In this document: in pieces, positions 1-54,749 of the stretch
Numbering within the stretch: the stretch's first letter is position 1
Layout: every line of letters starts with the position of its first letter
Assembly (NCBI GenBank): GCA_965205975.1
Contig: OZ242195.1
Span: 800,001-864,000 of the forward strand
Source of the DNA: Candidatus Latescibacterota bacterium
GTDB lineage: Bacteria; Latescibacterota; UBA2968
Length of the DNA: 64,000 bases
Reading direction: 5' to 3'
Position numbers and translations under genes: made by a program
Notes under the pieces: generated by a model
Database searches by the model: none
What the model saw: only the letters and a program-made list of their open reading frames with translations
Told to the model about the DNA's origin: nothing

Positions 1-94
1 CCCAGACATCGTCCAGCATCTTTGGGAAAAGTGTAAATCCAACTGTTTTGAATTCTTTTAGGTGTTCTTCGAGGGATTTGGGATCTTTTTGCAT
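1..94 (-). CDS. N-terminus of a probable PhyH (phytanoyl-CoA dioxygenase family) protein, runs off the window edge
   Basis: ATG at 94 with upstream CAGGAGG; MQKDPKSLEEHLKEFKTVGFTLFPKML resembles the 'F..xGF.v' start of PhyH proteins. Confidence 0.55.
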   Translation of the reverse strand, partial: MQKDPKSLEEHLKEFKTVGFTLFPKMLDDVW

Positions 95-137
95 TTCAGC
101 CTCCTGGTGTTTCAGTTTTCTTCATTTTGGGCAGAAT

Positions 138-305
138 TCAGGATTGGAAAATCGTCCCGGGCCACGGATAAGCGTTGGATCCAGCCTCATCATCGATGGG
201 GCCTTCCGGCAGTGTGGCTTGCCAATCCATGACCTGCTCTGACATCTGCTTGACCAGGGTCTCTTCAAATTTGGCGTGATTGACGAGTTCCATAATGTTT
301 TTCAT
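138..305 (-). pseudogene. Orphan C-terminal fragment of a sulfatase
   Basis: MKNIMELVNHAKFEETLVKQMSEQVMDWQATLPEGPIDDEAGSNAYPWP resembles sulfatase C-terminal tails; no catalytic domain. Confidence 0.5.
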
Positions 306-308
306 CTC

Positions 309-1694
309 TTAGCTCCTATCGACTTCCTCAGACCAGGCTCTGTACAATTCCTGCAGGCGTTCCACGACTTCGGGATGCTGATCAATCAGATCTTGACTCT
401 CGGAGGGATCTTCCTTCAGGTTAAATAGGCAGGTATTCTGGAGAAGCTCTGTGCGTTCAACGATCCCATCGCAGGGCTCTCGACCTCTCCTGCCACCTTT
501 ATGCAACAGCTTCCAGTCACCAGAGCGCACGGCATAACTGTCGCCCCAGCGCCAGAAGAGGTCTCGCTGGTCTGCGATTTTTGTGACATCTTTTGGGATG
601 GCTTGACCATCCAAACCTTCTGGCAGTTCGATCCCTGCCGCCTGTAAACAGGTTGGAAGAATATCGAGCGTTGAGATCGTCCTGTCACAGATCGTTCCAG
701 ATGCCGACTCATTTGGACGGGCGAGGATAAATGGCACGCGAATCCCGCCCTCCCAGAGCGTAAACTTGCTCCCGGCAAGCGGCAGGTTGCAGGCACCGGT
801 GTTCGGTGCGCCTCCGTTGTCTGAAAACATGATCACGATGGTGTTGTCGGCAAGCGATAGCTGATCCAACGTGTCCAGGAGGCGACCGATATTGTCGTCG
901 AGGCAGTTGAGGTTCGCCAGATAGTATCTGCGAAACTCGTCGGCATTGATCTCGCCGAGGGTGACATACCTTTTGAACCAGTCTTCATAACTGCCCATGG
1001 TCTCCGGGTCGTAGTTTGGAATCTCCCTTACGCCGTGCTTGTCGAGGTATCGCCTGGGTACCTGATGAATCAGGTGATGCACGGAGTTGTAGGAGAGCGT
1101 TACAAAGAAAGGTTCTTCCTGATGGCTCTCGAGAAAATCGATTGTCGCATCGGTGAAGATCTCCGTCAGATAACCTTCTCCAAATTCTTTGTAACCCCGG
1201 TTGTGCATGAGTGGGCCGACAACCGCGCTGTGCCCTTTTGGATCGGGCGTGCGATCTTCGATATCTCTGGTGAGGAGGAAATAGTCGTGGCCGTGTGCCG
1301 AGAAGCCGAGAAACTCGTCGTAGCCGTGGTTCAGCGGGTATTCGCGAGCTTCGTGATCGTGAAAGCCCAGGCCGTAATCGTTCTTGCCGAAACGCGCTGT
1401 GGTATAGCCGTTAGCCTTCATGATTTCGGCGATGTTCTTTTCTGTTTCAGGATGTCCGCAAAAAAAGGAGGATTTCGGGTCCCAGCGCACCTGGTGCCGC
1501 CCCGTATTCCATCCAGCACGCGAAGGGCTGCATACGGGAGCTGTCACATAGGCCTGTGAAAAGAGAACGCCGCGCTCAGCAAGCCGATCCATGTTTGGCG
1601 TTTGCACGTCTGGCGCATGGTGTTTGAATGCGGTCAGGTCGCCGTAGCCCTGATCGTCTGTAACAATGATGAGAAAATTTGGTTTTGTGCCCAT
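309..1694 (-). CDS. Arylsulfatase-family sulfatase (Cys-type)
   Basis: KPNFLIIVTDDQGYGD, CSPSR, SDNGG and LWEGGIRVP motifs; start placed at MGTKPN. Confidence 0.95.
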   Translation of the reverse strand: MGTKPNFLIIVTDDQGYGDLTAFKHHAPDVQTPNMDRLAERGVLFSQAYVTAPVCSPSRAGWNTGRHQVRWDPKSSFFCGHPETEKNIAEIMKANGYTTARFGKNDYGLGFHDHEAREYPLNHGYDEFLGFSAHGHDYFLLTRDIEDRTPDPKGHSAVVGPLMHNRGYKEFGEGYLTEIFTDATIDFLESHQEEPFFVTLSYNSVHHLIHQVPRRYLDKHGVREIPNYDPETMGSYEDWFKRYVTLGEINADEFRRYYLANLNCLDDNIGRLLDTLDQLSLADNTIVIMFSDNGGAPNTGACNLPLAGSKFTLWEGGIRVPFILARPNESASGTICDRTISTLDILPTCLQAAGIELPEGLDGQAIPKDVTKIADQRDLFWRWGDSYAVRSGDWKLLHKGGRRGREPCDGIVERTELLQNTCLFNLKEDPSESQDLIDQHPEVVERLQELYRAWSEEVDRS

Positions 1695-1723
1695 AATGAT
1701 CACCCGCTCCAATCCCCGCATTG

Positions 1724-3205
1724 TTACCTGTCAGCCCCGCCGGGAAGCTGCTCTCTGGTCATCACCTTGATTGGTGGCAGGTTATCGACCATTCCCGCGT
1801 CCGTGCGTCGAAGCTCATCAATGGTCCCTTGTCGAAGTTGGGCGAGCAACTCGTGGTAATCGGATTCCAAAGCGAGGTTTTCCAGTTCCTCGGGATCATT
1901 CTCGAGATCGTACATCTCTTCGATCTCCCCGGGGACGAGCCAGCGGATATATTTGTACTTTCCCGTGCACAGAGATACCCACCAGGGGATAGGAGGATTG
2001 CCTATTGGCTCGCCACAGCCGACATCGGTGTCTTCTCCAAAATAATGACCCGTACACTCCATCAGCAGCGGGCGATCCCATTCGGCGTTGGGATCGGAGA
2101 GCAATGGTGTCAGGTCCTCCCCGTGCATCTTCCAGGGTTGTTCCATGCCGATTAACGAGAGAAAGGTAGGCGGGATATCCTGACCGCCGATTGGCACATC
2201 GCATACTGTGCCTGCGGGAATCTGTCCCGGCAGCCGCATGATCATCGGCGCTTTGATATTGGCATCATAGGGCGCCACCTTGAGTCGAAAGCCGTGCTGT
2301 CCCCAGGCGAATCCCTGGTCCGACGTAAAGACGACCAGGGTATCATCCAATTGCCCCATCTCCTCTATGGCGCTGATCACCCTGCCAACCCCTTCATCCA
2401 GGGCGCGAACGCCCCGGTTGTATTGTTGTTCCCAATCTGTGAGGGTCCGTCCATCCCGGATGCCTACCGGTTGGCCCAGATCTCCCTCGCGCCAAACACC
2501 ATAGTCCCGCATATGTGTCGCCTTGGTCGGGCGCGGCGGGTAGATGTCTTCTGGCGTGGGGACCTGGGAAACATCTGGATAATCGTGGAGATGGCGGTCA
2601 GCCACTTCCCAGGGTCCGTGTACTGCATCATAGCACAGCCAGAGGTGCCAGGGCTTATCCGGTTCTTCTGCCCGTCCACGGAGAAATTCAAGTGCATACT
2701 CCGTGTAGTTATCGGTAGAATAGCCGCCAACCGGTTCCGGCGGTCCTCCGTTGATACTCATGCTCTGATTGACATAATAGGGCCCGTATTTCTCGGGTTG
2801 GCTGTGGTCCCAGATGGCAGAAAAATCCCAGTACCGACCGTGACCATGATCGGGACCTGTGTGCCATTTGCCGACGATGCCTGTGTACCAACCGTTCTCA
2901 CGGAGATTCTCGAGCCAGTACGGACACTGGTCTGGATCGCGGACATAGTTTGGGTAGCTCGTGGGCAGGTGCATGCTCATCACGCCATGTGGCAATTTTC
3001 CGGTCAGGTACGTGGCGCGTGAAGGCGCACACCAGGCACTGGTATAGCAGTTGGAAAAACGCATCCCCTCATGGGCGAGGCGGTCGATGTTTGGCGTACT
3101 GATCCACGAATGCGCCTCGGGATAGCAACTCACAGACCGAAAGCTCTGATCGTCGGTGAAGATGTATAAAATGTTGCGAGGATGGTTCAATTGATCATCG
3201 TTCAT
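1724..3205 (-). CDS. Sulfatase (Cys-type)
   Basis: NILYIFTDDQ, CAPSR, GKWH, SDQG, YDLENDPEE motifs. Confidence 0.95.
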   Translation of the reverse strand: MNDDQLNHPRNILYIFTDDQSFRSVSCYPEAHSWISTPNIDRLAHEGMRFSNCYTSAWCAPSRATYLTGKLPHGVMSMHLPTSYPNYVRDPDQCPYWLENLRENGWYTGIVGKWHTGPDHGHGRYWDFSAIWDHSQPEKYGPYYVNQSMSINGGPPEPVGGYSTDNYTEYALEFLRGRAEEPDKPWHLWLCYDAVHGPWEVADRHLHDYPDVSQVPTPEDIYPPRPTKATHMRDYGVWREGDLGQPVGIRDGRTLTDWEQQYNRGVRALDEGVGRVISAIEEMGQLDDTLVVFTSDQGFAWGQHGFRLKVAPYDANIKAPMIMRLPGQIPAGTVCDVPIGGQDIPPTFLSLIGMEQPWKMHGEDLTPLLSDPNAEWDRPLLMECTGHYFGEDTDVGCGEPIGNPPIPWWVSLCTGKYKYIRWLVPGEIEEMYDLENDPEELENLALESDYHELLAQLRQGTIDELRRTDAGMVDNLPPIKVMTREQLPGGADR

Positions 3206-3298
3206 TGTGATTCTCCGTAATCTATGTGGTCAGGTAAACCAGACCCTGGTTCGCTTCTATTTTCTCTGTTCTGCATCTATCCGAATTTGCGCCCACGA

Positions 3299-4366
3299 TT
3301 AGAACTCAGAGCCTGCAACAGTGCGAACGGCCTCGCTCCAGTCATCCCAAAGTCTCGGACCTTCCGGGCGTGGTTCAGGAGGCGGGACGGCTGGCCCAAG
3401 TTCAAGTTCGTGGAGTTTTCTCACGTTGGGCGGTGGCGATGGTCGTGGCCCTTTGACATAACGGCCGTTGTATGTTCTGTCATATACAGACTTTTTGTAG
3501 GCATCATAAAGAATCATCTGTCGAATCTGCGGAGGGTTGCTGTAGTTCCGCGTTGCCGAGTGGAACATTCGCCCGTGCCACAAAACCACATCGCCCTCGT
3601 CACCAAAAAATTCAAAGGGTTCAATGTCGGCGAGTGCGTCCTTGAGTCCTGCAGGCTGCGGCAAAACAAATGCCGCAGCGCCGCTTTCCGGATGGGGTGA
3701 ATGTAGAATTGAATAGCGGGCGAGGTCTGCGGAGTCCGGCTCTGCTTCGTAGAGCAAGCGGTGACTGCCGGGAAAAAGGGCGATGCCACCTCCACCCTGG
3801 GGAACCTGGTCAACGTATGCGCTTGCCACCAGATGCACCGGCTCGGGATCAATGTGTGCACCGGCACGGACGGCATCCGCCAGAGCAGGTGAGTCGCTCG
3901 GACGCTCTCTCGGCAGCACGCAATACATACCGCGCAACTCCTTGCCACCCCAGACCGGCCAACCACGCAACCGACTTCCACGCGGATCTGGATCGGCCGC
4001 GGAGGAAGTTACCTCTGGTGTCACAACTTCACCTTCACCGAGAAGTTGCTCAAACCACGGGAATACACGGCGTGGAAGCAAGTTGATTAAGTCCTCGTCG
4101 CCGGAGAGTTCACGCAGTCGCCAGCCGTGGTCACCGGTGCGATCATTCATGCCATCAGGGGTGCTTTGACGATCTGCCTCCGGGAGACCGTTTAGCCATG
4201 TTTGAGGATCGTCTCGGCGCAAATGACTTGAGGTATTCCCTGCCCATAACCTATCTCGTGCTGCAGCACAAAGTTTGGGGTCGAGGATCTTTCGTTTCAC
4301 GAGGAATCCGTTCGTAATAAATTGTTGGATCTCTTCTGTACTCAGTGCTGCCAATGCTGTATTCAT
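3299..4366 (-). CDS. PhyH-family Fe(II)/2-oxoglutarate dioxygenase-like protein
   Basis: QQFITNGFLV start, HID metal motif, FPGSH, GDVVLWHGRMFH. Confidence 0.85.
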   Translation of the reverse strand: MNTALAALSTEEIQQFITNGFLVKRKILDPKLCAAARDRLWAGNTSSHLRRDDPQTWLNGLPEADRQSTPDGMNDRTGDHGWRLRELSGDEDLINLLPRRVFPWFEQLLGEGEVVTPEVTSSAADPDPRGSRLRGWPVWGGKELRGMYCVLPRERPSDSPALADAVRAGAHIDPEPVHLVASAYVDQVPQGGGGIALFPGSHRLLYEAEPDSADLARYSILHSPHPESGAAAFVLPQPAGLKDALADIEPFEFFGDEGDVVLWHGRMFHSATRNYSNPPQIRQMILYDAYKKSVYDRTYNGRYVKGPRPSPPPNVRKLHELELGPAVPPPEPRPEGPRLWDDWSEAVRTVAGSEF

Positions 4367-4383
4367 GGAAATAACCCTTCTTT

Positions 4384-4430
4384 CTTCAATACTGAACCAT
4401 TATACGGACTTCAATACCGAACCATTGTAC
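4384..4430. repeat. Two 22-bp tandem copies (period 25 bp), each containing a -10-like hexamer on the minus strand
   Basis: CTTCAATACTGAACCATTATAC (4384-4405) vs CTTCAATACCGAACCATTGTAC (4409-4430); minus strand carries TATAAT and TACAAT. Confidence 0.8.
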
Positions 4431-4448
4431 ATCGTTGGGAGTAGTCAC
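4431..4448 (+). mobile_element. Orphan 18-bp right-end remnant of the IS200/IS605 TnpB element
   Basis: ATCGTTGGGAGTAGTCAC is the exact reverse complement of 44267-44284 and ends in TCAC. Confidence 0.8.
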
Positions 4449-4523
4449 GGATGGTGATGAATCCTCAGGATCGTGCTGGAGAATAGAGCTATAATCAGAA
4501 ATCCCAAAAACACAGAGGGGATT

Positions 4524-5951
4524 CTAAACACTCGGCAAAGGCACAGTATCTCCTGTTTCATGTTGCCACAATCGAATTTTCGCCGCCATATCGCGAATGC
4601 GATCGCGATGTTCAGGAACATCAAACAGATTGTTTTCTTCATAAGGATCTGTATTAAGGTCGAACAACTCACACTGGTCACCAGCACACAAATTCAACTT
4701 CCAGCGATCACCTGTCACCACAGATCGCCAGGGCAATGTCGCCATCAAGTTAATGCTTGGATTCCCTAAATTGCGATCGCCAATCCCATTCCACTCCATA
4801 AATGCAACGTGATCCTTCAAATTGCGCTCACCGGTGAGTGCACCAGCTAAACTCTTCCCTTCACACTGATCTGAAACTTCAACGCCCGCCAGATCCAAAA
4901 GTGTCGGCACCAAATCCGCATGCCCAAACACACCATCGATTCGTTTCTGTTCCTTATTCAACCACGGCACACTGAGCAAAAACGGCACTCGCGCAGACTC
5001 TTCGTAAAAAGTCCGCTTTTCCATCATCGCATGATCGCCCACCATTTCTCCATGATCACTCGTGTAAGCAATAATCGTATTCTCCAGTTGCCCTGTCTCT
5101 TCCAATGCCTGAATGATCCGCCCCACAGCATCATCCACAATCTTCATATTTCCGAAGTATTGCGATCTCACTTTCCGCCATCCCAATTCCGTACTTAAAT
5201 CTTCACCTGCCTCCTTCTTCGTTGCATAATGCTCTGCTCGCACCCGATTAAATCGCGAATGCCCTTCAGGATGTTTCAAAAACGTCGGGCCAACCGGCAA
5301 TTCCTCAGGATCATACAAACCGTCATACGGCCCTGTATATGGAGGGTGCGGTTCAAACGTACTGCACACCAATAACCAGGGCTGATCGACATTTTCTCGA
5401 ATAAACCGATCCGCTTCCTGCGCGACAAACGCCCCGACCTGTTGTTCCGCTGGCAAACGCGCGCGATCACCTGCAGAAAATTGTTTCAAGTCCGGCGCCA
5501 AATGCGAGGGTGGTTCAACGCCCTGCGCCACCAACCACTCATAGTGGGAACTCATCGGCGCATCTTGAATCGTATTCAAATGCCGCAAATTATCCTGAAT
5601 ACTGATCCACTCATCAAACCCATGTTGGCGAACGGTATCGTTGCCCAAATGCCATTTGCCCATATATGCCTTGCGATATGTATCTGGCATCATTTCCGCA
5701 ATCGACTTTGTATCTTCCCGCAGATGAATCCCATTCGCCACACATCCGTGCGAATGAGGGTACAGCCCAGACATCAACGTACCCCGCGATGGCGTACACA
5801 CAGCCTGACCAACATACGTATTCTCAAAAACAAAAGACCGCTCCGAAAGCGCATTCAAATGCGGCGATTGAATCCAATCATTGCCGTAACACGACATGGT
5901 ATCTGTGCGTTGCTGATCTGTGAACACAAAAAGAATATTCGGTTGATTCAT
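4524..5951 (-). CDS. Sulfatase (Cys-type)
   Basis: QPNILFVFTDQQR, CTPSR, GKWH, SDHG, YEESARVP. Confidence 0.95.
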   Translation of the reverse strand: MNQPNILFVFTDQQRTDTMSCYGNDWIQSPHLNALSERSFVFENTYVGQAVCTPSRGTLMSGLYPHSHGCVANGIHLREDTKSIAEMMPDTYRKAYMGKWHLGNDTVRQHGFDEWISIQDNLRHLNTIQDAPMSSHYEWLVAQGVEPPSHLAPDLKQFSAGDRARLPAEQQVGAFVAQEADRFIRENVDQPWLLVCSTFEPHPPYTGPYDGLYDPEELPVGPTFLKHPEGHSRFNRVRAEHYATKKEAGEDLSTELGWRKVRSQYFGNMKIVDDAVGRIIQALEETGQLENTIIAYTSDHGEMVGDHAMMEKRTFYEESARVPFLLSVPWLNKEQKRIDGVFGHADLVPTLLDLAGVEVSDQCEGKSLAGALTGERNLKDHVAFMEWNGIGDRNLGNPSINLMATLPWRSVVTGDRWKLNLCAGDQCELFDLNTDPYEENNLFDVPEHRDRIRDMAAKIRLWQHETGDTVPLPSV

Positions 5952-5991
5952 ATTTACCCCTCAAATTTGTCGTTCGCGGTATTCCCGATTC

Positions 5992-7980
5992 CTACGCAGA
6001 GGACAGTTCGATTCTCTTCATCACCCGCTCCAATACCCACTCCCTGACGATGCCATCCCGCTGCCCACCGAGCCCGCTTGTGTAATTGTTCTTTTCGACC
6101 TGCGCGTTGTGTTCCGGTCCGAACATCTCCTGTTTGTTTATGGCCTGCGCCAGGGCGGGAATAAGCGGTGCCATAGGTTGCAGTTCTTCGCGGCTGCGGT
6201 ATGACAGATAGGCACCTGCCCGTAGCCGCGCCCAGAGGATATCGCTCGATAGCGCGCGCTCAAAAGCGGGCAGGGCAAGGACGCCTTCACCTGCCCGCAC
6301 CAGATAGTCCCCAGCGGCCAGGCTGACGCTGATTGCGGGATCGTCCAGTAGGGGGGATAGGTGCTCGATCATCGCGCGTTCTACACCGAGTGAGCAAAGG
6401 CCGGTAACAGCCCAGAAACGCACGGCGCTGTCGGGATCGCCAAGTCGTTTTGCGAGTTCTTCCTTTGCTTCTTCGCCCATGCGCGCCAGGTCTGCTGTTT
6501 CCAGAATACGCTCGTAATTGTCACAATGCGCCCCGACTGCATGACTCACACCATTGTACTGCTCAGCTCGCGCGGCAATTTCCGGTTCATCAATCAACCC
6601 CAGGTCGCGGGTCTCGATCATCCAGTCGAACAATTTTTGCCGCAACTCATCCTTCACATTGCTGTAAGCGGGGTCATCTGCCAGGTTATTTATCTCTTCG
6701 GGATCGTTCTCGATGTCATACAATTCTTCGGCGGGTTTGTGATCCTGCCAGATCTGAAACTGCCGGTAATGCTCAGGCAACCCGTCCTGTTTGATCATGA
6801 CCGGCGGGCCGAGCATCAGAAATACGCCGTCGGGGTCGTGGACCTTTTGTTTGCCTGGCAGGCAAGAGGTCTCCCAGAAGGCGCGTTCCGGCGTTCCTTT
6901 CTCCGGGACCTTCGCGAAGAACCCGCCGTCTGGATAAAACGAAGCATAAGGTTGGTGGGGGAGGAAGTTGCGGATATAACGGTATTTTTCGGTGCGGATT
7001 GTGCGGATCACTTCCGGGTTGTTGTCCAGCCGATCCCTGGCACTGCAGACGAAATCTCTCGGTTCATCTCTGTTGGGGCCGCACAGGTTGCGACTCTGGA
7101 TGTGTTCGGCGATAGGAATGCCTGATAGCTGCAGGGTCGTCGCGCAGAGGTCCATGTGCAAGACGGGTTCATCAACCGCGGCGCCGGGTTCTGCCGGGGA
7201 TAGGTGCTGATATTTTTCAGGGAATCGCATGATCAGTGGGATATTCAGCCCGTCGTCGTAGGCGTGGATCTTGCCCCGGGGATAACCTGCGCCGTGGTCT
7301 CCCCAATAGACCACAATGGTGTCTTCACTGTGCCCCTGTGCTTCAAGCTCATTCAGGATCTCCCCGACCTGCTTATCGACGTTGGTAAGGGCGTCGTAGA
7401 AGAGCGCCATCCGTTCCCTGAACAGGGGGGTGTCGGGAACAAAGCTCGGAACCGGCACCTCATTCGGGTCGTGCAACTCGTCGTCGCTCAAGAGTGAGGA
7501 ACGCGCTTTCCGCGCATCCTCGGGCGTCAGTTTGAATACACTGGCGTGGGAACTGCCCAGTCTGTAATACATGAAGAACGGCTTGTCTTCAGGGCGATTC
7601 TCCCAGAAATCTTCAGCGTTGTAATACTGTTCACGCTCCTCTTTGGAGACGTATAGGTTGATGTCATTGTCCGGCTGCGTGCAGGCATAACCGGCGTCCG
7701 TCAGCATTGTGTTTAACAACTCAACTCCTGCGGGGCGGATGATCGCGCTGCGGTGATGATGCGTGCCCAGCGTGGTCGGATGCATGCCGGTATAGATGCC
7801 CGTGCGCGATGGTGAGCAGATTGGGCCAGCGGTGAACGCGTTTGTGTAGCGCACACCTTCTGCCGCCATGCGGTCAATATTTGGGGTATGTGCGTATTGA
7901 TCTCCGTAGCAACCGTAGTTCCAGGCACTGGAATCGTGGTTGCTGATCCACAGGAAATTGGGTCTGTCTTGTTTTGTCAT
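5992..7980 (-). CDS. Sulfatase with C-terminal HEAT-like repeats
   Basis: CSPSR, GDHG, YDIENDPEE; C-terminal LGDPDSAVRFWAV and LLDDPAISVSLAA repeats. Confidence 0.9.
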   Translation of the reverse strand: MTKQDRPNFLWISNHDSSAWNYGCYGDQYAHTPNIDRMAAEGVRYTNAFTAGPICSPSRTGIYTGMHPTTLGTHHHRSAIIRPAGVELLNTMLTDAGYACTQPDNDINLYVSKEEREQYYNAEDFWENRPEDKPFFMYYRLGSSHASVFKLTPEDARKARSSLLSDDELHDPNEVPVPSFVPDTPLFRERMALFYDALTNVDKQVGEILNELEAQGHSEDTIVVYWGDHGAGYPRGKIHAYDDGLNIPLIMRFPEKYQHLSPAEPGAAVDEPVLHMDLCATTLQLSGIPIAEHIQSRNLCGPNRDEPRDFVCSARDRLDNNPEVIRTIRTEKYRYIRNFLPHQPYASFYPDGGFFAKVPEKGTPERAFWETSCLPGKQKVHDPDGVFLMLGPPVMIKQDGLPEHYRQFQIWQDHKPAEELYDIENDPEEINNLADDPAYSNVKDELRQKLFDWMIETRDLGLIDEPEIAARAEQYNGVSHAVGAHCDNYERILETADLARMGEEAKEELAKRLGDPDSAVRFWAVTGLCSLGVERAMIEHLSPLLDDPAISVSLAAGDYLVRAGEGVLALPAFERALSSDILWARLRAGAYLSYRSREELQPMAPLIPALAQAINKQEMFGPEHNAQVEKNNYTSGLGGQRDGIVREWVLERVMKRIELSSA

Positions 7981-8043
7981 CTATCTGGTTCTCCAAATGT
8001 ATCAGACGATAAAAATGCGAACTGTCAATCGCGTTGTAACCCC

Positions 8044-9426: not shown

Positions 9427-9467
9427 AGCCTGATCTCCCAATGTAATCGGTGAAATAAAAAGGACTC

Positions 9468-11432: not shown

Positions 11433-11445
11433 TATAAATACTCTG

Positions 11446-11760: not shown

Positions 11761-11820
11761 GATATTTTACTCCTGACTTCGAGGATGAAGGGTTTTAGCA
11801 TTCATCGCCTTCATTTGCGC

Positions 11821-39063: not shown

Positions 39064-39075
39064 GCGTACTCCTTA

Positions 39076-41289: not shown

Positions 41290-41291
41290 TG

Positions 41292-41363
41292 CTATTCCCT
41301 CCTATTGAGGTGTTTGATGATGGCCATCTCAAGTTCCGAGGTGAATGATTTCTCAGGCTTCAT
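41292..41363 (-). pseudogene. 23-aa mini-ORF, probably a collapsed gene
   Basis: Strong RBS GAAGGAG then MKPEKSFTSELEMAIIKHLNRRE*. Confidence 0.35.
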
Positions 41364-41388
41364 TCTCGCTCTCCTTCCAAAGTATCTA

Positions 41389-42813: not shown

Positions 42814-42834
42814 AAAAAGTTCGGCCTTTGTTTT

Positions 42835-45637: not shown

Positions 45638-45898
45638 ATAACGAATTTGCCCGATCCGCCCGGCTTCCTCCTCGGCAACCGAGACATGCGCGATACCCAG
45701 GATTTCCTCACCCTCAACTGCGCAGAGAAATTGCTCCGTTCCGAGGTTTGTATATGGCTGTTCATCAAACGGCTTGTGAATACAGCCCCATTCGAACTCG
45801 TGTCGTGAAACAGGGTAGCGGTGGGGCAGAGTTCCTATGCGTGAGTTGTAAAATGCACGGAAGTCTGCTCCTACCATGTCACTTTCGACGATCTTCAA
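45638..45898 (-). pseudogene. N-terminal part of a GNAT-like gene interrupted by the TnpB element
   Basis: PHRYPVS...FLCAVEGEEILGIAHV...GQIRY ends at the TTAT insertion site. Confidence 0.6.
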
Positions 45899-45971
45899 TC
45901 AGTATCTCTTGTGGTTGCTGGTGTTGAGATTTTTGGTTTTGCCCGCCATAAACAGGGCAGTCGGATTCATT

Positions 45972-46436
45972 TTATTCGCTTGAGTCGCGCCTCCTGGCGA
46001 GCATTTCTTCTCGCACCTTCCTCTTCAAGCGCTCCAGTTCTGTCTTTTCTGCTTTCTTCCGATTGCGTTCCGTGGCCGCTGAAGCATATTGCTCTCTACT
46101 CGTCCTCACCTTGTCCAGCCATTCTCGTCGTGTGGACAGGATCTCTGGGCTACTCTTGGTACCATAGCTGAGATTGTTCAGGAAGTCGATTATCTCGTTA
46201 GGCTTCCCGCCGATGAGATCGCGTGCTCCTGGTGCCGACAGTCCGCCTTCGAGTTCCCAGTGATACCTGTGAATCAGAGTATCGATCAGGATCATTTTTT
46301 CTTGAACTGATCGCGCGACCCTATACTTTTGCACGTATTCTTTAAGGAACGCTGTCATGCCGGATGCAATAAGGTGTTTGCCTCGAATCCCGGCTGCGCC
46401 TTGCACCCAAAATCGCGCACACCATCGCACCATCAC
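45972..46436 (-). pseudogene. Probably 5'-truncated hypothetical protein
   Basis: Protein-like from GKHLIASGMTAFL..MILIDTLIHRYHWEL; the first ~17 codons look non-homologous. Confidence 0.45.
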
Positions 46437-47560
46437 ACCATCGTCTCCAAATACACCTTCAACGCTGTAGCCAGATCGCGGCCAAATACACGCGCCAGTT
46501 CTGGACTCGTATCCAGATCGCCCACATTGGCATAGGGAAACTCAATTGCCGTTGCCAATTGAACGCCCGGCAATTCACCCGCCCACCGCCCAAAGCTCTT
46601 GCCAGTTGCATAATTTTCTGCCGTATTCCACTCCACCCCAAAGGGCAAATTATCCGCTGCACAAAAGGGCAAGCCGCCCGTTCGTTCCGCTTCCAAAATA
46701 TGCGAAAACCGCATCTGTTCCTGCCAGGGGGCTTCTGACTCAGACCCCACCAGATAAATCGTCTCATTTCGATTACTACGAATCCACGGACAGTGCAGAT
46801 CAATCGCTACCTTCAGTTTGCCAGCACTCCAATCCGGCACCCTTTCTCGAATCACAGCCGTTTCAATATGCACACTCTCCCCGACATAATCCCGGTTGTG
46901 ATCCCTCGGCTTCCGATTCTTCCCCTGATCGCCATCCTCCACACCGTCTTTATCCACAAACGGAATCACCAGACATTCAACCCGTCCCTGAAACCAACGC
47001 CCCAAATCATCCTCACCAAGTATCGCTGCCATCATGCCTTCCAGCACGTATGACTGCATCATCTCACAGCAGTGGTGTCGCGCCGCAATCAACACGCGCA
47101 GATCCGCCCCACCGTCCAGCCGCCCCACATACAACATCTCAACATCATGTCCTTTGCGCGTCTCGCACAACGTCTCAGCCACCAGATAGTCCGAATCCAC
47201 ATACGACGCCAAAAACCGGTCCAGGTCGGCCTGCACATACGGCATCCCAAAACTGAACCGCACATCATCCGCGTCATTCGCAAACGCATACACAAACGAC
47301 TGTCCATCCACCGCATCATTACCCAACCAGCGCCACGTCACCCCACCGTCTTCACTCATCCCAGGACCACGCGTGCCAATCACATTGCTGCCGGTAAAGT
47401 GAAACCGCACGGTTCGGCCTGCTGCGCCACGCACCCGAAAATACCAGTAGAACCAGTCGCGATCCGTATCGCGCAGATCCTGCCGAAGAAACACATCATC
47501 ATCGTCAATTCGTTCAGCGATGATATTCCCACCCGGAAAATCACAATCTATCATAATCAT
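46433..47560 (-). CDS. M14-family zinc carboxypeptidase
   Basis: DFPGGN, WFYWYF, RHHCCE, DHNR, IDLHCP. Confidence 0.88.
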   Translation of the reverse strand: MIMIDCDFPGGNIIAERIDDDDVFLRQDLRDTDRDWFYWYFRVRGAAGRTVRFHFTGSNVIGTRGPGMSEDGGVTWRWLGNDAVDGQSFVYAFANDADDVRFSFGMPYVQADLDRFLASYVDSDYLVAETLCETRKGHDVEMLYVGRLDGGADLRVLIAARHHCCEMMQSYVLEGMMAAILGEDDLGRWFQGRVECLVIPFVDKDGVEDGDQGKNRKPRDHNRDYVGESVHIETAVIRERVPDWSAGKLKVAIDLHCPWIRSNRNETIYLVGSESEAPWQEQMRFSHILEAERTGGLPFCAADNLPFGVEWNTAENYATGKSFGRWAGELPGVQLATAIEFPYANVGDLDTSPELARVFGRDLATALKVYLETMV

Positions 47561-47623
47561 TGAACACGCTTCTTTATGATGTCGATTTGCATTTACTCCT
47601 CCACTATCCATTGGAGCGGTAAT

Positions 47624-48139
47624 CTAGATAGACAATGGGCGACGGAGCCGGATTTGGCGTCCGTTGTCTCGAACACCGCCATCACGTTTCCACCCCATCG
47701 CCTCGTAGAAGGCGATCCCGCGTTCATAACCCTTAACAGTCCAAACTATCGCTTCATTATAACCGTCGGCAACGAGATGACGAAACGCGAGCGAGGCCAA
47801 CGCCTTGCCGATGCCGATGCGCCAATACGAGGGGTCAATGGCGATGGTATCGAGTTCCCCTAATGTGGCGTCAACGGGATCGCGGCTGGGACCGATGCCG
47901 ACAAAACCGACAACCTTACCCGTATGCTCTGCGACCCACCACCGGTGCGGGGCAGACTTGGCAAGATCGCCGCGCCAACGCTCAACAAGTTCTGGTGTGA
48001 CGATGCGATTGGACTGCTCGATGAGTTCACCGAATCCTGCATTCCACGAATCGATATATATACGTGTGACGACTTCGGCGTCCACCGCAGCGGCCGATCG
48101 GATCGTTGGCCAAGGTTTTCGTGGATGTGCGTGTTCCAA
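47624..48139 (-). CDS. GNAT acetyltransferase
   Basis: IDPSYWRIGIG, AFYEAMGW. Confidence 0.9.
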   Translation of the reverse strand: MEHAHPRKPWPTIRSAAAVDAEVVTRIYIDSWNAGFGELIEQSNRIVTPELVERWRGDLAKSAPHRWWVAEHTGKVVGFVGIGPSRDPVDATLGELDTIAIDPSYWRIGIGKALASLAFRHLVADGYNEAIVWTVKGYERGIAFYEAMGWKRDGGVRDNGRQIRLRRPLSI

Positions 48140-48150
48140 CTCGCCTATTC

Positions 48151-48456
48151 CTATACGGACTTGTAGAGGCTACCATCCGTGGTTGGACGGATGTCAGGAC
48201 ACGGCGCGCCGCGATCGGCAAGGTGTCGAACGAATTCCACAATGGTTTTGGGATGGGTCGAGCCGTCCCACCCCGGATTCACGCGGAACACAACGCGTCC
48301 TTCCCGCAGACTATCACAAAAAAAGACGCACCGCGAATTCGCCCTGCGGACGCTGGTTACTTCCAGATCCCAGAATCGCTTGCAGAGATCCATAATTTCT
48401 GGCTGATCAGGCAGTGGGCCTGTTTCGTCTCTATATCTGGGATAGCGTGGTTCCAT
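48151..48456 (-). pseudogene. N-terminal fragment of a phosphotransferase (APH/homoserine kinase-like)
   Basis: RVVFRV, EFVRHLADRGAPCP..RPTTDG then stop; no HGD catalytic motif. Confidence 0.65.
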
Positions 48457-48496
48457 TGGTTTTCTCGGACCAGGACTGGCCGTAGCGGCGCGAAGA

Positions 48497-48652
48497 TTAT
48501 AGGTGGTGCATAGCCCCAACAGCGTCGAGTCGATATTGGTTGCCATCGTATGCAATCGTCGTAACGGAGCATTCACGCATTACTTCACCACTGTATGGGT
48601 CATTGCAGATTGCCCAAGTTGGCCTGTCGTGTCTTGGTTTCGGGTTGCTCAT
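48497..48652 (-). pseudogene. 51-aa ORF resembling a histidine phosphatase C-terminus
   Basis: ...RECSVTTIAYDGNQYRLDAVGAMHHL*; no RHG motif. Confidence 0.4.
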
Positions 48653-48687
48653 GTATTCCTTAGAGATTTTTCAGGAGCATGTTTTTT

Positions 48688-51174
48688 TTATTCATTCCGC
48701 AAGGCATCTACAGGATTTGATCGAGCTGCCTTCATTGTCTGGAAACTCACTGTGATCATGGCAATAAGGAAAGCCAAGATACCACTTAACATAAAGAACT
48801 CAAATCCAAGATCTACCCGATACGCATAATTCTGAAGCCACTGCCACAGGGCATAGTAGCCAATCGGCCAGGCCAAGAGATTTGCAAGTGCGACCAACTT
48901 TGCAAAATCACTGGATAGCAACATAACAATATTGGATACAGACGCTCCCAATACCTTGCGAATGCCGATTTCTTTTGTACGGTATTGCACACTCAATGTG
49001 GCCAACCCAAGTAACCCCAAGCAGGCAATCAAAATACCAAGGGTTGAAAAGAAACCAAAAATATAGCTCAGTTTTCTTTCATTTTTATAGATTCGATCCA
49101 AATTCTCATCAAGAAAAGAAAATGTGAATGGACGATTGGGTATATACCTTTCCCAGACTTTTTGTACAAATGCCAGTGTTTGAGATAAATCTTCAGATTT
49201 GACCTCTAGGTATAGTAGCCTTGCCTCATGAAATTCTGCAACCAATACGAGTCGTCCGATTTTTTCGTCAAGAGGTTTGTAATGAAAATTTTTGACAACA
49301 CCGACGACTGTGCCGGAGCGTAGTCCATCTGGGTAGAACGTGCCTCCAACCTTCCAATCAAATCGTTTCCCTATTGGATTTGTCCAACCCAATTGCTCGA
49401 CCGCTGTTTCATTCAAGATAAACTGCTCGTCTAATTTTTCCCTCAGTCTTTGCGGGTTTGTTGTTTCGGCATATGATCGCGTGAAATTCCGGCCTGATAC
49501 GCATTTAATGCCATAGAAATCTAGAAAATCCTCATCCACGATTATCACATCCATACTGTACGTGGATTTTCCTTCGGGATGGAATGTCTCTACTGTTGCT
49601 CCTTCTCCAACAGGGCCACGGGTGGTTGTTGCTCTGAGAATATTGGGATGCGTCGTGAATGCCTGCTTGATGGCGTTGTATTGGCTCTTGAAAAGCGTGG
49701 GATTGATCATCTGGTTGCTATTCGCTGCCTCAAAAATTGGAACTTCAATAATCTGCTCGCGGTCGAATCCCAAATTTTTATTTCGAAGAAATTTCTGTTG
49801 ACTGTAAACACCCCAAGTGACAACCATCAATAAAATGGCAAGAGCAAATTGTCCTACAACCAAACTCTTGCGAAGCCGAGTAGAGACGTTTGTAGCGGAT
49901 TTACCTCTCAACATTGAAACAGGGCGAAATGTCGATAAGACAAATGCCGGATAACTCCCTGCCAGAATACCGACGATGAATATAAGACCGAAAAGGCTGA
50001 GCAATAACTGGGTTGTGTTGACATTGAGTGTAATAGCGCGATCAAAAAACGAATTGAAAGTTGGCAATGCCAATTCTACCAACACCAAAGCCAAGATAAG
50101 CGCCATACAAGCAAAAAATATAGATTCGCCCAAAAATTGTGTGATGAGCTGCAATCGGTTTGCACCGACAACCTTACGAAGCCCGACCTCTCGCCTCCGC
50201 CCAATTGCACGAGCAGTTGTTAGGTTTATAAAATTCACACAGGCAATTACTAAAATAAAAATAGCAAGCAAAGAAAACAAATACACATTTTGAATGTCAC
50301 CATGAGGTTTACTGGTCTCTGGAGTACCACGATTCTCAATTTTGATGACATAATCATGATTGGAGTATAGATGGATGCGGTTTAGGGGCTGCAAATGATA
50401 TTGAATGTTATTTGCAGTTGCTTCGCCCAGGTATTTCGGAATCAGATCTGAAAGTTTGCCTTCAAGTTGATTCGCATCATAACCTTCTTTAAGCAAAATA
50501 TAGCTTTCTACAGGACGCCCCCCTCTCGGTTTCCAAGCCATCCATTTTTCTTCCCATCGCCCATTTTTAGTCGCCGATAAAATATCGAACCGAATGGCCG
50601 TCTGCGCAGGCATATTTTTTAAGACGCCTGTAACGTGATGCGCATAATCTTTGTCGTCTTCCTCGATCAGAATGGTTTTGCCAATCGGATTTTCAGTGCC
50701 AAACAGTTTGTGTGCAAGTCTTTGAGTGATTAAAACGGAACCTGGTTCTGAGAGAACCGTTTCGGGATCGCCTTGAATCAGTGGAAAGTCAAAAACCTGT
50801 AGAACATTCTCGTCTGTAAGGCAAAAGGCTTGTTTGTATATTCTCTTATTGTCAGCAATTATTGTTCTTTGCCAGCGATGGATACGCAAAGCCTCAGAAA
50901 TTTCAGGATATACATCCTGATTCAAGACTTCTACGAGACCTCCTAATGTGCGCTCACTAAAAGCTGCTTGGTCAACTGTTTTAGTCTCTCGAATCACCCT
51001 GTAAATTTGATCTCGATTCCTTTGGTGCTGATCAAAACCTAATTCATAGTCGATATAGAGGCCTATCAGGATACAACAAGCCAAACCAATGGCTAATCCG
51101 ATAATGTTCAGAGCTGAGTAGAAACGATGGTTTATCAGGTTTCTCAGCATTATTTTGAGATAATTTTTCAGCAT
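48688..51174 (-). CDS. MacB/FtsX-type ABC transporter permease
   Basis: MLKNYLK start, ACVNFINL, REVGLRKVVGA, KEIGIRKVLGA, NPVDALRNE. Confidence 0.95.
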   Translation of the reverse strand: MLKNYLKIMLRNLINHRFYSALNIIGLAIGLACCILIGLYIDYELGFDQHQRNRDQIYRVIRETKTVDQAAFSERTLGGLVEVLNQDVYPEISEALRIHRWQRTIIADNKRIYKQAFCLTDENVLQVFDFPLIQGDPETVLSEPGSVLITQRLAHKLFGTENPIGKTILIEEDDKDYAHHVTGVLKNMPAQTAIRFDILSATKNGRWEEKWMAWKPRGGRPVESYILLKEGYDANQLEGKLSDLIPKYLGEATANNIQYHLQPLNRIHLYSNHDYVIKIENRGTPETSKPHGDIQNVYLFSLLAIFILVIACVNFINLTTARAIGRRREVGLRKVVGANRLQLITQFLGESIFFACMALILALVLVELALPTFNSFFDRAITLNVNTTQLLLSLFGLIFIVGILAGSYPAFVLSTFRPVSMLRGKSATNVSTRLRKSLVVGQFALAILLMVVTWGVYSQQKFLRNKNLGFDREQIIEVPIFEAANSNQMINPTLFKSQYNAIKQAFTTHPNILRATTTRGPVGEGATVETFHPEGKSTYSMDVIIVDEDFLDFYGIKCVSGRNFTRSYAETTNPQRLREKLDEQFILNETAVEQLGWTNPIGKRFDWKVGGTFYPDGLRSGTVVGVVKNFHYKPLDEKIGRLVLVAEFHEARLLYLEVKSEDLSQTLAFVQKVWERYIPNRPFTFSFLDENLDRIYKNERKLSYIFGFFSTLGILIACLGLLGLATLSVQYRTKEIGIRKVLGASVSNIVMLLSSDFAKLVALANLLAWPIGYYALWQWLQNYAYRVDLGFEFFMLSGILAFLIAMITVSFQTMKAARSNPVDALRNE

Positions 51175-51257
51175 GTGTCTGCCCCCAAAGAAGTGATTTC
51201 GGTTATTGGCAATTTCAGTTTTCATGAAATCAACATAATGGATGCACTCTGGGGATT

Positions 51258-51279
51258 ATTAACGAACTGTTACGGTAAT
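51258..51279. repeat. Second copy of the 22-bp motif seen at 35279
   Basis: ATTAACGAACTGTTACGGTAAT. Confidence 0.6.
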
Positions 51280-51407
51280 TCATACCAAATCTATGTATCT
51301 CCGACCTTGCGGGAATTCTTCTCTTCAGAGGTTGTATTCCGAACATGTTCGCAGATGCTTCCTCTGGAGGCATCATTTCTATTCAGAACCCGCCTCCTTT
51401 CCCTCCA

Positions 51408-52325
51408 TCAACGCACCTGCCCCATAGGCCATTCCGAGGTCGGCCTACCTTGCCAGGTTGATCGTCGAAAGAATCGCCCACCTGGGGGGCGGCTAAACCA
51501 GCTACTAATTGCGATTCCCCAAAAGTGCTCAAAGGATCTGTCTTTTAGATTTGCGTCACAGTATTCGTAGTGCGACAAGACCTCGTCGAGGAATGACTCT
51601 CCGTATATCCAGAACCCATAGAAATCCTTAGCGGGATCTGTGATTTCGATGTCCCCCCAGTCTATGATCCCAGTAAGTCTTCCGGTTGAGGGATCATGAT
51701 AGATGTGTTTGTACCAGAGGTCGTTGTGAGCCAGCACAGGCTCGTATGAATGATTGATGCTTTCACTTCTTTCGATCCATGCTTCGAAAACATTGCGGAC
51801 CTCACGTTGAAGCTCGTCAGCCCGTTCAGCGAATAACTCCTTCCACATCCTGCGGCGCCTGACCGATGCGTCGCCCTCTACTACGCCGAGGCTCCGTGCC
51901 TTTGCGACCGGGTAGCTGTGGAGTTCGCTGATGAAAACACCCAGCCTCTGAGCGGCCTCGCTGCGGTTTGCCTTGGAAAGTCTCCAAAACCGCCACGGCG
52001 AAATTCGAGTCCCCGGAATTGTATGGTATCCCGCAAAATCTGACGCCTTCGGCACGAATGCATAGTCGGGAATGGGTATTGTCTTCAGGCTGCTTCTAAG
52101 GGCATCCAGGACGGTCCGCTCCCTCGTCAGATTTGTTTCCTCATCGTTCTCGAACCGGAAAGCGATGCCATTGTCCAACAGAATCATTACATGATCGGGA
52201 TCGGCAATGGTCTGAACTCTTCGGTAATTTGCCCACACGAGATCTGGAAAGGCGTTTCTGATTCTCTCCAGGTAGTAGCTGGAAGCCAATGGGGGCATTC
52301 GGCAAGAAATGTCTGAATGATCCAT
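51408..52325 (-). CDS. APH-family phosphotransferase
   Basis: FISELH, HNDL, GIIDWGD, DPAKDF. Confidence 0.85.
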   Translation of the reverse strand: MDHSDISCRMPPLASSYYLERIRNAFPDLVWANYRRVQTIADPDHVMILLDNGIAFRFENDEETNLTRERTVLDALRSSLKTIPIPDYAFVPKASDFAGYHTIPGTRISPWRFWRLSKANRSEAAQRLGVFISELHSYPVAKARSLGVVEGDASVRRRRMWKELFAERADELQREVRNVFEAWIERSESINHSYEPVLAHNDLWYKHIYHDPSTGRLTGIIDWGDIEITDPAKDFYGFWIYGESFLDEVLSHYEYCDANLKDRSFEHFWGIAISSWFSRPPGGRFFRRSTWQGRPTSEWPMGQVR

Positions 52326-52372: not shown

Positions 52373-52999
52373 TCAGGCCGCAGTCAGCAAAATAGGCTGG
52401 CCATCGGTAATAACGACGGTATGCTCAAAATGAGCCGAAAGAGATCCGTTTGAGGTCCTTACGGTCCAACCGTCGCAATCTTCAACGGCTTGGGCTGGAT
52501 GCTCGGCAATCATAGGCTCAATGGTGATCACAAGACCATTCGTAAGCGGCTTAGAATCGAACGGATTGTAGGTGTTTGCAACGATGGGATCCTCATGGAT
52601 AACCCGACCTACCCCGTGCCCTGCAAGCTCACTGACAACCCAGAATCCTTGTCGTTTCACCTCGTGCTCTACGGCATGACCGATGCAATTGATCGGTTTG
52701 TTTGCGCGAGCTACGGCCACCGCCTTTTCAAATGCCGTACGGGCACATCGACACAATCTATCGGCTTTCGCGGAATATGGAGGAATCGGGATGGTGATTG
52801 CTGCATCTGCAATGTAGCCGTTCAATTCAGCGGTGACATCCAGACTTACAATGTCACCCTGTTCCAGCACTCGATCACCCGGAATACCGTGAATGATCTC
52901 GTCATTGACACTGATAAGATTGACGCCAGGAAAACCGTAAAACAGCCGAGGTGCGGAGGTTGCCCCGTATCGATTGAGCACCGACTCGCCAACGCGATC
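52373..52999 (-). pseudogene. map: Type I methionine aminopeptidase, 5'-truncated by IS3
   Basis: SVNDEIIHGIP, GDIVSLD, GHGVG..HEDP, TIEP, SAHFEHTV; N-terminus lost at the IS3 end. Confidence 0.88.
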
Positions 53000-53044
53000 T
53001 GTAATGGTTCAAAGTAAATTGGAATTTTGGGTGTTGTAGTTAAG

Positions 53045-53977
53045 CTACAAATGGGCAACGGGTTTGACGGCTCTGAGTTGGGCACGCAAGCATTTTGCTT
53101 GCGCCAACTTGCGTTTTCGTTCTCGAAAAATAAGTGGTGCTCGACCACACAGTTTATCAACAGGCGCGATATACCCGATGCTGGCGTGGTATCTCTTGTG
53201 GTTGTAATGCGCGACAAATCTGGCAACCACTTCTCGCGCCTCCTCCAAATTCGTCGGTGTTTTGGGACGAATACACTCGCGCTTGAGCGACTGGTGCCAC
53301 CGCTCGATCTTGCCATTGGATTGCGGATAAAACGGCGAAGTGCGCACATGGGTCATCCCGCAGTGTCTGATAAAGGACTTGAAGGCAAGGGCAATAAACT
53401 GTGGACCATTGTCCGAGATGATACGCGGCCTGACGTTGGGGAACTTTTCTCTGCCTCTTTGAATAATGATCTCGACATCTGCTTCTCGCATCGCTTCTCG
53501 AATCTCAAAATGGACGAGAAAGCGACTATAGCCATCTAAAAGGGCACATAAGTAGTAGAAGGTCCCGCAGATATTCAAATAGGATACATCCACATGCCAG
53601 TGCTGGTGTGCCCGTGTTGGCTGGTCAAATCCTGTCCCCTTCTTTGAGACCTTTTTTAAAGTTCGACTAAGCAGATCGGCGCCTTTGAGCACGCGATACA
53701 CGCTACTGGGTGAAACAGCTACAACATCTTCATCTATCATCTGATACGCCAAACGACGATACCCCTGGTCGGGGTGCGCTATGGCATAAGTGATAATGGC
53801 TTGCTTCTCCCAGTCCAAGAGCCAGGAACTCTTGGGCAGTGACCCATAAGTGCCATTGGGCGCACCATACCGGGCTTTCCAGTCATAATATGTGCTTGTA
53901 GATAACCCTAATAAGGATAAAAACTGACCGATAAAGATACCGGTTTGCTTGTGCCAATGGACCACAAAATCAATCAC
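53045..53977 (-). CDS. IS3 transposase OrfB (DDE), likely expressed as OrfAB by -1 frameshift
   Basis: WHVDVSY, SDNGPQF, NGKIERW. Confidence 0.92.
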   Translation of the reverse strand: MIDFVVHWHKQTGIFIGQFLSLLGLSTSTYYDWKARYGAPNGTYGSLPKSSWLLDWEKQAIITYAIAHPDQGYRRLAYQMIDEDVVAVSPSSVYRVLKGADLLSRTLKKVSKKGTGFDQPTRAHQHWHVDVSYLNICGTFYYLCALLDGYSRFLVHFEIREAMREADVEIIIQRGREKFPNVRPRIISDNGPQFIALAFKSFIRHCGMTHVRTSPFYPQSNGKIERWHQSLKRECIRPKTPTNLEEAREVVARFVAHYNHKRYHASIGYIAPVDKLCGRAPLIFRERKRKLAQAKCLRAQLRAVKPVAHL

Positions 53978-54012
53978 CGCATCGCGAATGACCCTCGAAA
54001 TCGGACGTTGAC

Positions 54013-54321
54013 TCAGGTCTCCCCAAGACTTTTTTTTAGAAAAATGTGCTCTTCCATCAGTTCTGACAACACTTCGTTCTTTGTTGCCAATTTGGCCTCT
54101 AAGACAGCAATCTTTCTCGCCTGCTGTTTCTCATGCACACTCTGCTTTGGCGCAAAGGCTGAGGTACCTTGCTCGAAAAACACCTTCTGCCACTGGTAGA
54201 ACATCGTCGGGTGAATCCCGTGTGCATCACACAAATCTGACACGGGCACGCCATCTAACAGATGACGACGCAAAATCGACACCTTCTCTTCGGGAGAATA
54301 TTGCTTACGCTTCTTCGACAT
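54013..54321 (-). CDS. IS3 transposase OrfA (HTH)
   Basis: RKQYSPEEKVSIL, GIHPTMFYQW; AAAAAAAAG slippery run near the 3' end. Confidence 0.92.
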   Translation of the reverse strand: MSKKRKQYSPEEKVSILRRHLLDGVPVSDLCDAHGIHPTMFYQWQKVFFEQGTSAFAPKQSVHEKQQARKIAVLEAKLATKNEVLSELMEEHIFLKKSLGET

Positions 54322-54398
54322 GGACTCCTCCTTGGGGACAGCCCAATTTATAGCTTATCAATGCACCACAAAAGTCCATTTCTATCTGAAGCATAACA

Positions 54399-54671
54399 TT
54401 TCGTCTTCTCAATAGCTTGCGCCATCATTTCTGGCGCGAAGTCAATTGCGGTCACCCTGGCACCTGCTTCTGACAGATAAAGGGTATGACGTCCCGTGCC
54501 GCAGCCGATATCAGCGACGCTGAGTTCCTGGATGTCCCCCAACAGGGATCGCAATAACGGCTCTTCCAAAATGATCAAGGAATTGTCCTGCGTATCGTAC
54601 GTATCAGACCAACGAGCGTAGCCTTGCCGGACAGGTACGGTTTCAAGATCGGCCCCAGACCCATTACTCAT
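54399..54671 (-). pseudogene. Class I SAM methyltransferase, 3'-truncated by IS3
   Basis: GGAGG RBS; GYARWS, DIGCGTGR, AIDF; ends at the IS3 end. Confidence 0.85.
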
Positions 54672-54749
54672 GTTGTATGCCTCCAGGAAATGCCCCCACG
54701 CCAAGATCATCTCCGCATAGATGTCATTTTTTTACAATTATTTAGATAC

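Follow-up and report, generated by a model that had tools for sequence, protein, structure and literature searches.

Sedentary chromosomal integrons, for which we take that of Vibrio cholerae and its integrase IntI4 (structure 2a3v) as the reference, combine a G|TT crossover, cassettes made of a gene plus a hairpin with matching ends, and a co-oriented array whose head end holds the newest DNA. The orientation of 25 out of 30 such integrons is opposite to head-on, and the head-on ones are small (PMC5371416). In the reverse integron of Treponema denticola, the integrase has the same direction as the array and attI lies behind its 3' end (PMC4909258). In attC clusters that have no integron-integrase (CALIN), a cassette array occurs in a genome devoid of the integrase, and degenerate CALINs have been proposed as a stage through which captured genes become permanently fixed (Cury et al. 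2016, PMC4889954). The delta-attI-type cassettes of integrons of classes 1 and 2 place a truncated attI with an intact core inside the array (PMC12901181), cassette fusion has been reviewed (PMC8876359), nearly a third of the intI genes are pseudogenes (PMC2426708), and the integrase of an experimentally inverted V. cholerae integron was quickly inactivated in the recombination-prone orientation (PMC11023631).

Here we analyze a 64,000-nucleotide stretch of a Candidatus Latescibacterota bacterium (contig OZ242195.1 of assembly GCA_965205975.1), hereafter the window, which corresponds to G000:C1:800,001-864,000, where G000 is the 5.56-Mb single-contig genome of this organism (98% complete). We compared it with a genus set of 21 genomes and an order set of 41 genomes (G numbers designate genomes, L numbers loci and X numbers sequencing runs). 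In 16 congeners, the same anchor gene is followed by variable DNA (G012 is represented by 3 kb only), and five relatives are fully covered. The bacterium is probably a sponge-dwelling symbiont, and several of the public runs that hold its DNA carry sponge or marine metagenome labels.

An earlier note, made from the letters alone, had described the first 55 kb of the window as an accretion locus in which foreign DNA is added gene by gene and trimmed by deletion, like a domesticated integron array. We are fairly confident that the anchor-proximal 30 kb are what is left of an integron-like array whose likely loader was a co-oriented, IntI-like recombinase without the I2 insertion, and that the whole row of genes was likely packed by deletion and by tandem duplication followed by loss. 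The integron part of the earlier view holds for positions 24-54.7 kb, which contain an integrase remnant, attI copies, probable attC halves and genes adjoining attC sites in relatives. Positions 1-24 kb and 38-44 kb show no cassette trace, and a gene-by-gene foreign origin is therefore unsupported there. Our explanation covers the proximal half only; the origin of the distal half is left among the alternatives weighed below.

Like the sedentary integrons, the locus combines a tyrosine recombinase nearest to IntI4, the G|TT crossover, gene-plus-hairpin cassettes with matching ends and a co-oriented array whose newest DNA is at the head, but the enzyme is about 42 residues shorter at the IntI insertion, bears an extra N-terminal module and is co-oriented with the array, which is head-on to replication. 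It shares the direction of the integrase and the position of attI with the T. denticola system, whereas its enzyme falls below the IntI cut-off, without the insertion, and its heads are stacked and decayed. No integron integrase neighbors the array, as in a CALIN, but G000 holds no intact attC (fewer than two), which puts the locus a step further on than a CALIN, with the stages in between represented among the relatives. A truncated attI with an intact core lies behind an open reading frame (ORF) inside the array (35300-35262), as in the delta-attI-type cassettes, but the copies here are chromosomal, have up to 160 bp of the integrase 3' end attached and are spread over 200 kb. In parallel with the inactivation in the inverted V. 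cholerae integron, the integrase is intact here in 1 of the 21 genus genomes, but the orientation appears to be kept in 16/16 relatives and attC is lost too, the orientation being the presumed cause. We found no paper on I2-less cassette integrases, on stacked heads or attI sites, or on Latescibacterota integrons in the literature, supplements not covered.

Recombinase, attI sites and attC cassettes behind the anchor gene

Directly behind the same anchor gene, and on the array strand, G005 carries an intact 376-residue IntI-like recombinase (L046:1216-2346), the closest solved relative of which is IntI4 by both sequence and fold. This protein has 25 residues where IntI4 has 67, scores 214 bits, below the IntI cut-off of 265, and lacks the additional domain (I2 insertion) of the classical integron enzymes. 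It belongs to a large family with a conserved N-terminal alpha/beta module (residues 14-67), which gave no Pfam match and no HARP entry among the fold matches listed. Only two of the 21 genus genomes hold a match to it, namely G005 and G010, the copy of the latter having an in-frame deletion. In both genomes the gene is co-oriented with the array, as is the remnant in the window, which is the arrangement of a reverse integron. G005 and G010 share the anchor-integrase junction; they stand apart in a tree of the 3.1-kb flank whose deeper nodes have weak support, and we saw no sign of a recombination tract. Canonical IntI is absent from all 21 genus genomes, and the best match within G000 reaches 88 bits. 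We also rejected the remaining tyrosine recombinases of G000, among them an XerD-like gene at 3.94 Mb, since none is an IntI or heads a cassette array. The earlier note was correct that no integrase gene lies in the window, yet a 3' remnant of one is present.

An attI-type site occurs about 130 bp behind the recombinase stop in G005 and G010, and its copies are alike as far as G|TT and differ beyond it. The G039 row of the alignment had a wrong coordinate and is left aside. Remnants of related integrases are followed by the same attI in L128, where a regular attC array is present, and, twice in tandem, in G039, a genome of another family. The classical arrangement of an attI with a G|TT crossover beside the integrase is found in relatives, and the window holds two remnants of it. 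Copies of attI occur in 13 of the 21 genus genomes, often two or three per genome, and further copies in G006, G004 and G020 are at a distance of 160-223 kb to the anchor. G010 has an integrase head with about 11 kb of cassettes before the junction of a scrap (which we take to be toxin-antitoxin-like) with attI, a junction that directly follows the anchor in G003, G007, G008 and G013. Whole heads were therefore added at the anchor end.

The hairpin sites found in the relatives consist of TAAC, an arm, a variable loop, an arm and GTTA. In 9 of the 14 attC sites used for training, the bottom-strand fold has the R boxes paired, and the folds contain G:T pairs and an asymmetric loop close to the R box. 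The full attC architecture (inverse core, bottom-strand hairpin, core) is thus present in relatives, and the window has probable halves only. The attC model R1 was built from these 14 sites and run on 47 loci; it is mostly a sequence model, as RNAalifold gave only four pairs. A fold-based scanner was unspecific and dropped, and arm-matching versions worked. All 69 matches of the model lie on the array strand, 62 of them in the 16 congeners (10 used for training) and seven in L128 (four used for training). Their density per 10 kb falls from 2.0 at 0-10 kb from the anchor to about 1.0 at 10-30 kb, 0.85 at 30-40 kb and 0.22 at 40-50 kb, and there is no match in 251 kb beyond 50 kb or in 102 kb upstream of the anchor. 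Cassette ends point the same way: matching 7-bp ends (core and inverse core, as in classical integrons) flank 15/145 genes within 10 kb of the anchor, against a mean of 1.3 and a maximum of 6 in 500 shuffles, then 3/162, 3/203, 0/221 and 3/486 genes in successively farther distance classes, the background being 15/4152. Consecutive cassettes with matching ends occur in G005, G010 and L128, and an inverse core follows within 3 kb in 7 of the 19 attI-first cassettes (0.06 expected by chance). In some relative or other, attC adjoins 11 of the genes or scraps of the window, all of which lie at 26.8-54.7 kb; below 24 kb, no gene of the window has att-type ends above chance. Weight-matrix scans for att halves gave counts near chance.

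Some further observations concern these elements. G019 has attI copies far from the anchor locus (G019:C1:2495365 and 5693030), and relatives carry attI at the place matching about 695 kb of G000. At L064 (G039), a pair of genes, presumably toxin-antitoxin-like, lies between two tandem integrase-end and attI heads, and an attC half as well as what we take to be glycoside-hydrolase-like and PhyH-like genes follow within 8 kb. A palindrome between the integrase stop and attI (L046:2373-2388 and window ~51350-51339; also in G039) resembles, in our estimation, a LexA box of the Gram-positive type. At L065 (G026), a related short recombinase has a repeat of its own 5' region and, downstream of it but on the opposite strand, possible attC sites.

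Extent, scraps and conservation of the co-oriented row

Consistent with the co-orientation noticed earlier, the minus strand holds 35 of the 37 called genes of at least 450 bp in window 1-54.8 kb, the exceptions being the sulfatase 15314-16786 and, probably, the plus-strand scrap 21125-21585 (gene calls come from a purpose-built dicodon model, and the counts are approximate). The run extends past the window over genome positions 755,454-857,920 (about 102 kb; 72 genes of at least 450 bp, two exceptions). It is the longest co-oriented run in G000, which has 87 runs of at least 12 genes, and its 72 genes were reached by none of 300 Markov simulations at the switch rate of the genome (maximum 70). 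The abrupt changes of composition were also borne out: the mean jump in GC content at third codon positions (GC3) between neighboring genes is 0.106 against a genome median of 0.056, a value reached by 0.3% of 709 windows, the GC3 spread of the window being in the top 10% only. Searches for repeats and tRNAs revealed no repeated site family and no tRNA in the window, and contigs of the RNA run X15 cover parts of the array, though such contigs cannot show transcription.

Two artifacts that the earlier note had named as fatal to its reading can be set aside. A leading-strand bias is excluded because GC skew, with ori at ~4.160 Mb and ter at ~1.482 Mb, assigns the row to the lagging strand, and the leading-strand fraction genome-wide is 0.507 (4257 genes), i.e., there is no strand bias. 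The flank skew is alike in 16/16 relatives and the G008 replichores agree, so that the orientation appears to be kept. As for misassembly, 14 of 41 gene adjacencies are private to G000 among the 16 relatives, but the other 27 are spanned by a single alignment in at least one of them. Run X2, which may be the source sample rather than an independent one, covers 30/30 bins of the two stretches compared at similar depth, except for multi-copy insertion sequence (IS) elements, and X5, an independent sponge-metagenome run from another study, holds the same genes in different orders. Neither artifact has any appreciable probability.

The scraps of former genes proved real in 11 of 12 cases (138, 18750, 21125, 34362, 41292, 45638, 45972, 48151, 48497, 52373 and 54399), each matching part of a longer ORF in relatives with 91-100% identity. 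Scrap 27835 has no protein match and corresponds to a nucleotide junction at which G008 has 207 bp extra. Scraps 54399 and 52373 abut an IS3-type element (~52999-54398), and the latter is short by 14 N-terminal residues only. Duplicated scraps number three in G000 and 2-13 in each of eight relatives. Trimming by deletion is shown by 45 junctions in 100 kb where one of the 16 relatives holds extra DNA between the same flanks, mostly with an overlap of 0-9 bp. A terminator-like hairpin does follow the core gene (54781-54751). As to the partners said to be missing, other parts of the genome contain paralogues of trpD (35% identity) and of the permease (42%), and rhaM is single-copy.

The prediction of a conserved anchor with a variable gene order came out half right. 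The anchor is present in 41/41 genomes, but the order is mostly conserved (Spearman 0.92-0.99 and 1-10 backward steps against the five fully covered relatives), which also speaks against accretion gene by gene; much of the mosaic therefore stems from independent losses and from duplication-loss of a shared ancestral row. The first 10 kb behind the anchor are the least shared (22-53% of the window DNA in the five relatives), and what comes after the anchor in G021 and the four most distant congeners is DNA located elsewhere in G000. Accessory DNA is shared as far as about 617 kb, a convergent plus-strand block at 720-755 kb being part of it. As a control, 20 evenly spaced stretches of G008 share 0.12-1.00 with G000 (median 0.885), against 0.655 for the 12 stretches of the array, and the identity to G008 is 96.2-97.3% in the first 100 kb against 90.5-96.2% in the controls. 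The array is more mosaic than the rest of the genome, but not uniquely so.

Proposed mechanism and alternative explanations

We propose the following course of events. First, a recombinase lay behind the anchor, followed by attI, as in G005, and attC cassettes would have been inserted at G|TT in a fixed direction; judging from sequence and anatomy, this loading was likely catalyzed by the short recombinase. Second, new integrase-attI heads with new cassettes were added more than once before the older ones, as the stacked heads of G010, G005 and G039 show. Both lineage transfer by recombination at the anchor and attI-bounded circles fit these data, and recombination with DNA of a related lineage or such circles would be the most likely routes. 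Third, short deletions, visible at the junctions, eliminated the integrase, attC sites and genes that were not needed, leaving the scraps. Fourth, the head-on orientation, which is known to raise cassette excision, may have favored the loss of integrase and attC, thereby fixing the surviving genes. Fifth, the sulfatase-rich blocks may be fully stripped old captures or catabolic DNA that arrived as blocks, and duplication-loss, which keeps the strand, could account for the duplicated scraps and the local order swaps.

Several observations weigh against an integron-like origin. No intact attC remains in the window or in G000, and the attC half-site calls are individually weak (best E 0.13). At neither attI did we find a promoter-like (sigma-70-like) site, overall matches being 21 against 21.7 by chance. 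No sulfatase or PhyH gene is among the listed attC-flanked genes, TAAC at stop codons is at background level beyond 50 kb from the anchor, and sulfatases (163 matches) and PhyH genes (70) are spread over the whole of G000. Apart from two short pieces, nothing in G005, the genome with the intact enzyme, matches window 1-20 kb at more than 77% identity. Mosaicism exists elsewhere too, as 7 of the 20 control stretches share 0.68 or less. Finally, G023, from another genus of the family, has a canonical integron integrase match, split in two pieces (L044, G023:C423), so that a past classical enzyme acting in trans may be conceivable.

We regard as possible, though doubtful, that the row is an ordinary catabolic island in a mosaic genome, with chance integron relics, a co-orientation due to operon-like selection and scraps due to a general deletion bias. 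The genome-wide mosaicism, the many co-oriented runs, the ubiquity of sulfatases and the conserved order all agree with it. Yet the row is the longest run of the genome, with GC3 jumps in the top 0.3%, the gradients of sharing and of attC are polar from one fixed end in 16 genomes, and all that the four distant congeners tested have of window 1-20 kb is paralogues at 66-75% identity. An island of this kind cannot account for 24-55 kb, and it may hold for 1-24 kb.

Conversely, the entire 100-240 kb accessory row, sulfatases included, could have arisen at attI one cassette at a time and have lost every att site afterwards, which we find unlikely. The smooth decay of attC with distance would be expected in that case, and large cassettes do exist (the 2.75-kb permease and a 737-residue peptidase); the distant attI copies of G006, G004 and G020, a gene at 652 kb of G000 that keeps matching cassette ends, and an identity to G008 that drops from ~97% to ~93.5% along the row also favor it. 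What stands in the way is that sulfatase or PhyH genes were not seen beside attC, that multi-gene catabolic blocks are conserved as units, and that the convergent plus-strand block at 720-755 kb is common to 5/5 fully covered relatives.

That a classical IntI loaded the cassettes in trans, the short recombinase being a passenger, seems quite improbable. The additional domain of IntI has been described as necessary for integron recombination (PMC9668308), and G023 supplies one canonical match in the family. In G005 and G010, however, attI lies about 130 bp behind the short recombinase, as it does behind the remnants in L128 and G039, canonical IntI is found in none of the 21 genus genomes, and the geometry of the sites has an asymmetric loop next to the R box.

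Returning to the integron-like array that we favor, a more daring extension, to which we give limited credence, is that the I2-less integrase acts as a one-way gene-fixing ratchet: integrase plus attI would move like a cassette and re-head the array repeatedly, the head-on orientation would drive the loss of integrase and attC, and the ratchet would have built most of a region of 240 kb, or 4% of the chromosome, along with its catabolic genes, in a probable sponge symbiont. Within the array itself, the loss of attC with distance likely turns mobile cassettes into permanent genes. This step has been proposed, but is undocumented in the literature examined, and the 16 close, mostly complete genomes form a natural time series of cassettes becoming ordinary chromosomal genes through the loss of integrase and attC. 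The intact enzyme, attI and cassettes also allow a test of whether the IntI insertion is truly needed. Arrays at this stage of decay would escape the tools that require IntI or intact attC, so that integron-derived DNA may be undercounted.

Features of the window and neighboring DNA

Table 1. Positions of the features recognized in the window, listed from the anchor towards the distal end.
Feature	Position	Strand	Evidence or remarks
Anchor gene, UvrB/C-motif protein, fixed head end	54817..55566	-	Pfam PF02151; matched in 41/41 genomes of the order
Terminator-like hairpin behind anchor	54751..54781	-	Sequence; integrase upstream region in its place in G005, G010
Methyltransferase cassette (248 aa), 5' 91 codons, cut at IS end	54399..54671	-	attC after it in G008
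IS3-type element, two transposase ORFs	52999..54398	-	Pfam rve, HTH_Tnp_1; absent from the five fully covered relatives
Methionine aminopeptidase-like cassette without 14 N-terminal residues	52345..52999	-	Matching 7-bp cassette ends in G003, G004
Probable left attC half of methionine aminopeptidase-like cassette	52359-52345	-	3' of that gene
APH-family phosphotransferase cassette	51408..52298	-	attC-flanked in G007, G010, G020; position varies among relatives
Last codons of I2-less integrase and attI region	51258..51415	-	96.8% identity over 158 bp to G005 L046:2310-2467; deleted just before the G|TT crossover
MacB/FtsX permease, 2.75-kb cassette	48688..51225	-	Directly behind attI in G005, G007; matching 7-bp ends in G007
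Cassette genes and scraps: 48497, 48151, GNAT 47624, 46433, 45972, 45638	45638..48660	-	Longer ORFs of relatives, attC neighbors
IS605-family TnpB/OrfB gene, multi-copy in genome	44308..45447	-	Not at this place in the five fully covered relatives
Catabolic block: FAD oxidoreductase, sulfatase, PhyH, GH4	38026..44109	-	Unit kept in many relatives; 3 internal adjacencies common to 7-8/16; no att site found
Probable attC right half	36365..36390	-	Best weight-matrix match in array; model E 0.13, weak alone
Second attI copy, truncated, G|TT core intact	35262..35300	-	Between aldo-keto reductase gene and APH-family cassette
Older cassette segment: APH, NUDIX, 32827 gene, trpD, Ham1, BNR-repeat gene, MFS	24376..35235	-	Sequence, attC neighbors in relatives
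Duplicated 3' scrap of Ham1	34362-34437	-	Within older cassette segment
Probable left attC half of 32827 gene	32814-32801	-	Within older cassette segment
Further probable attC halves	28704-28679; 25620-25602	-	Within older cassette segment
Distal catabolic row: sulfatases, PhyH, alginate lyase, rhaM; scraps 138, 18750, 21125	1..24328	-	Collinear with relatives, no att trace; continues to genome 755,454

Beyond the window, G000 616,000-711,000 contains two more minus-strand rows (part in L026 and L027), each headed by small cassette-type genes and with sulfatases towards the tail, and a scrap at 673.5 kb matches DNA behind the anchor in G008 and G020. The convergent block includes, at G000 728,000-742,000, a largely private insertion with genes broken by IS, which we take to be of the type I restriction-modification kind. 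In the distal part of the window, a 744-residue ORF (11821-14055), present in 5/5 fully covered relatives, fuses an alginate lyase domain to a PhyH dioxygenase domain. On the other side of the anchor, positions 60823-61662 encode an LDL-receptor class B repeat protein with repeats of 129-138 bp, a type of protein typical of sponge symbionts.

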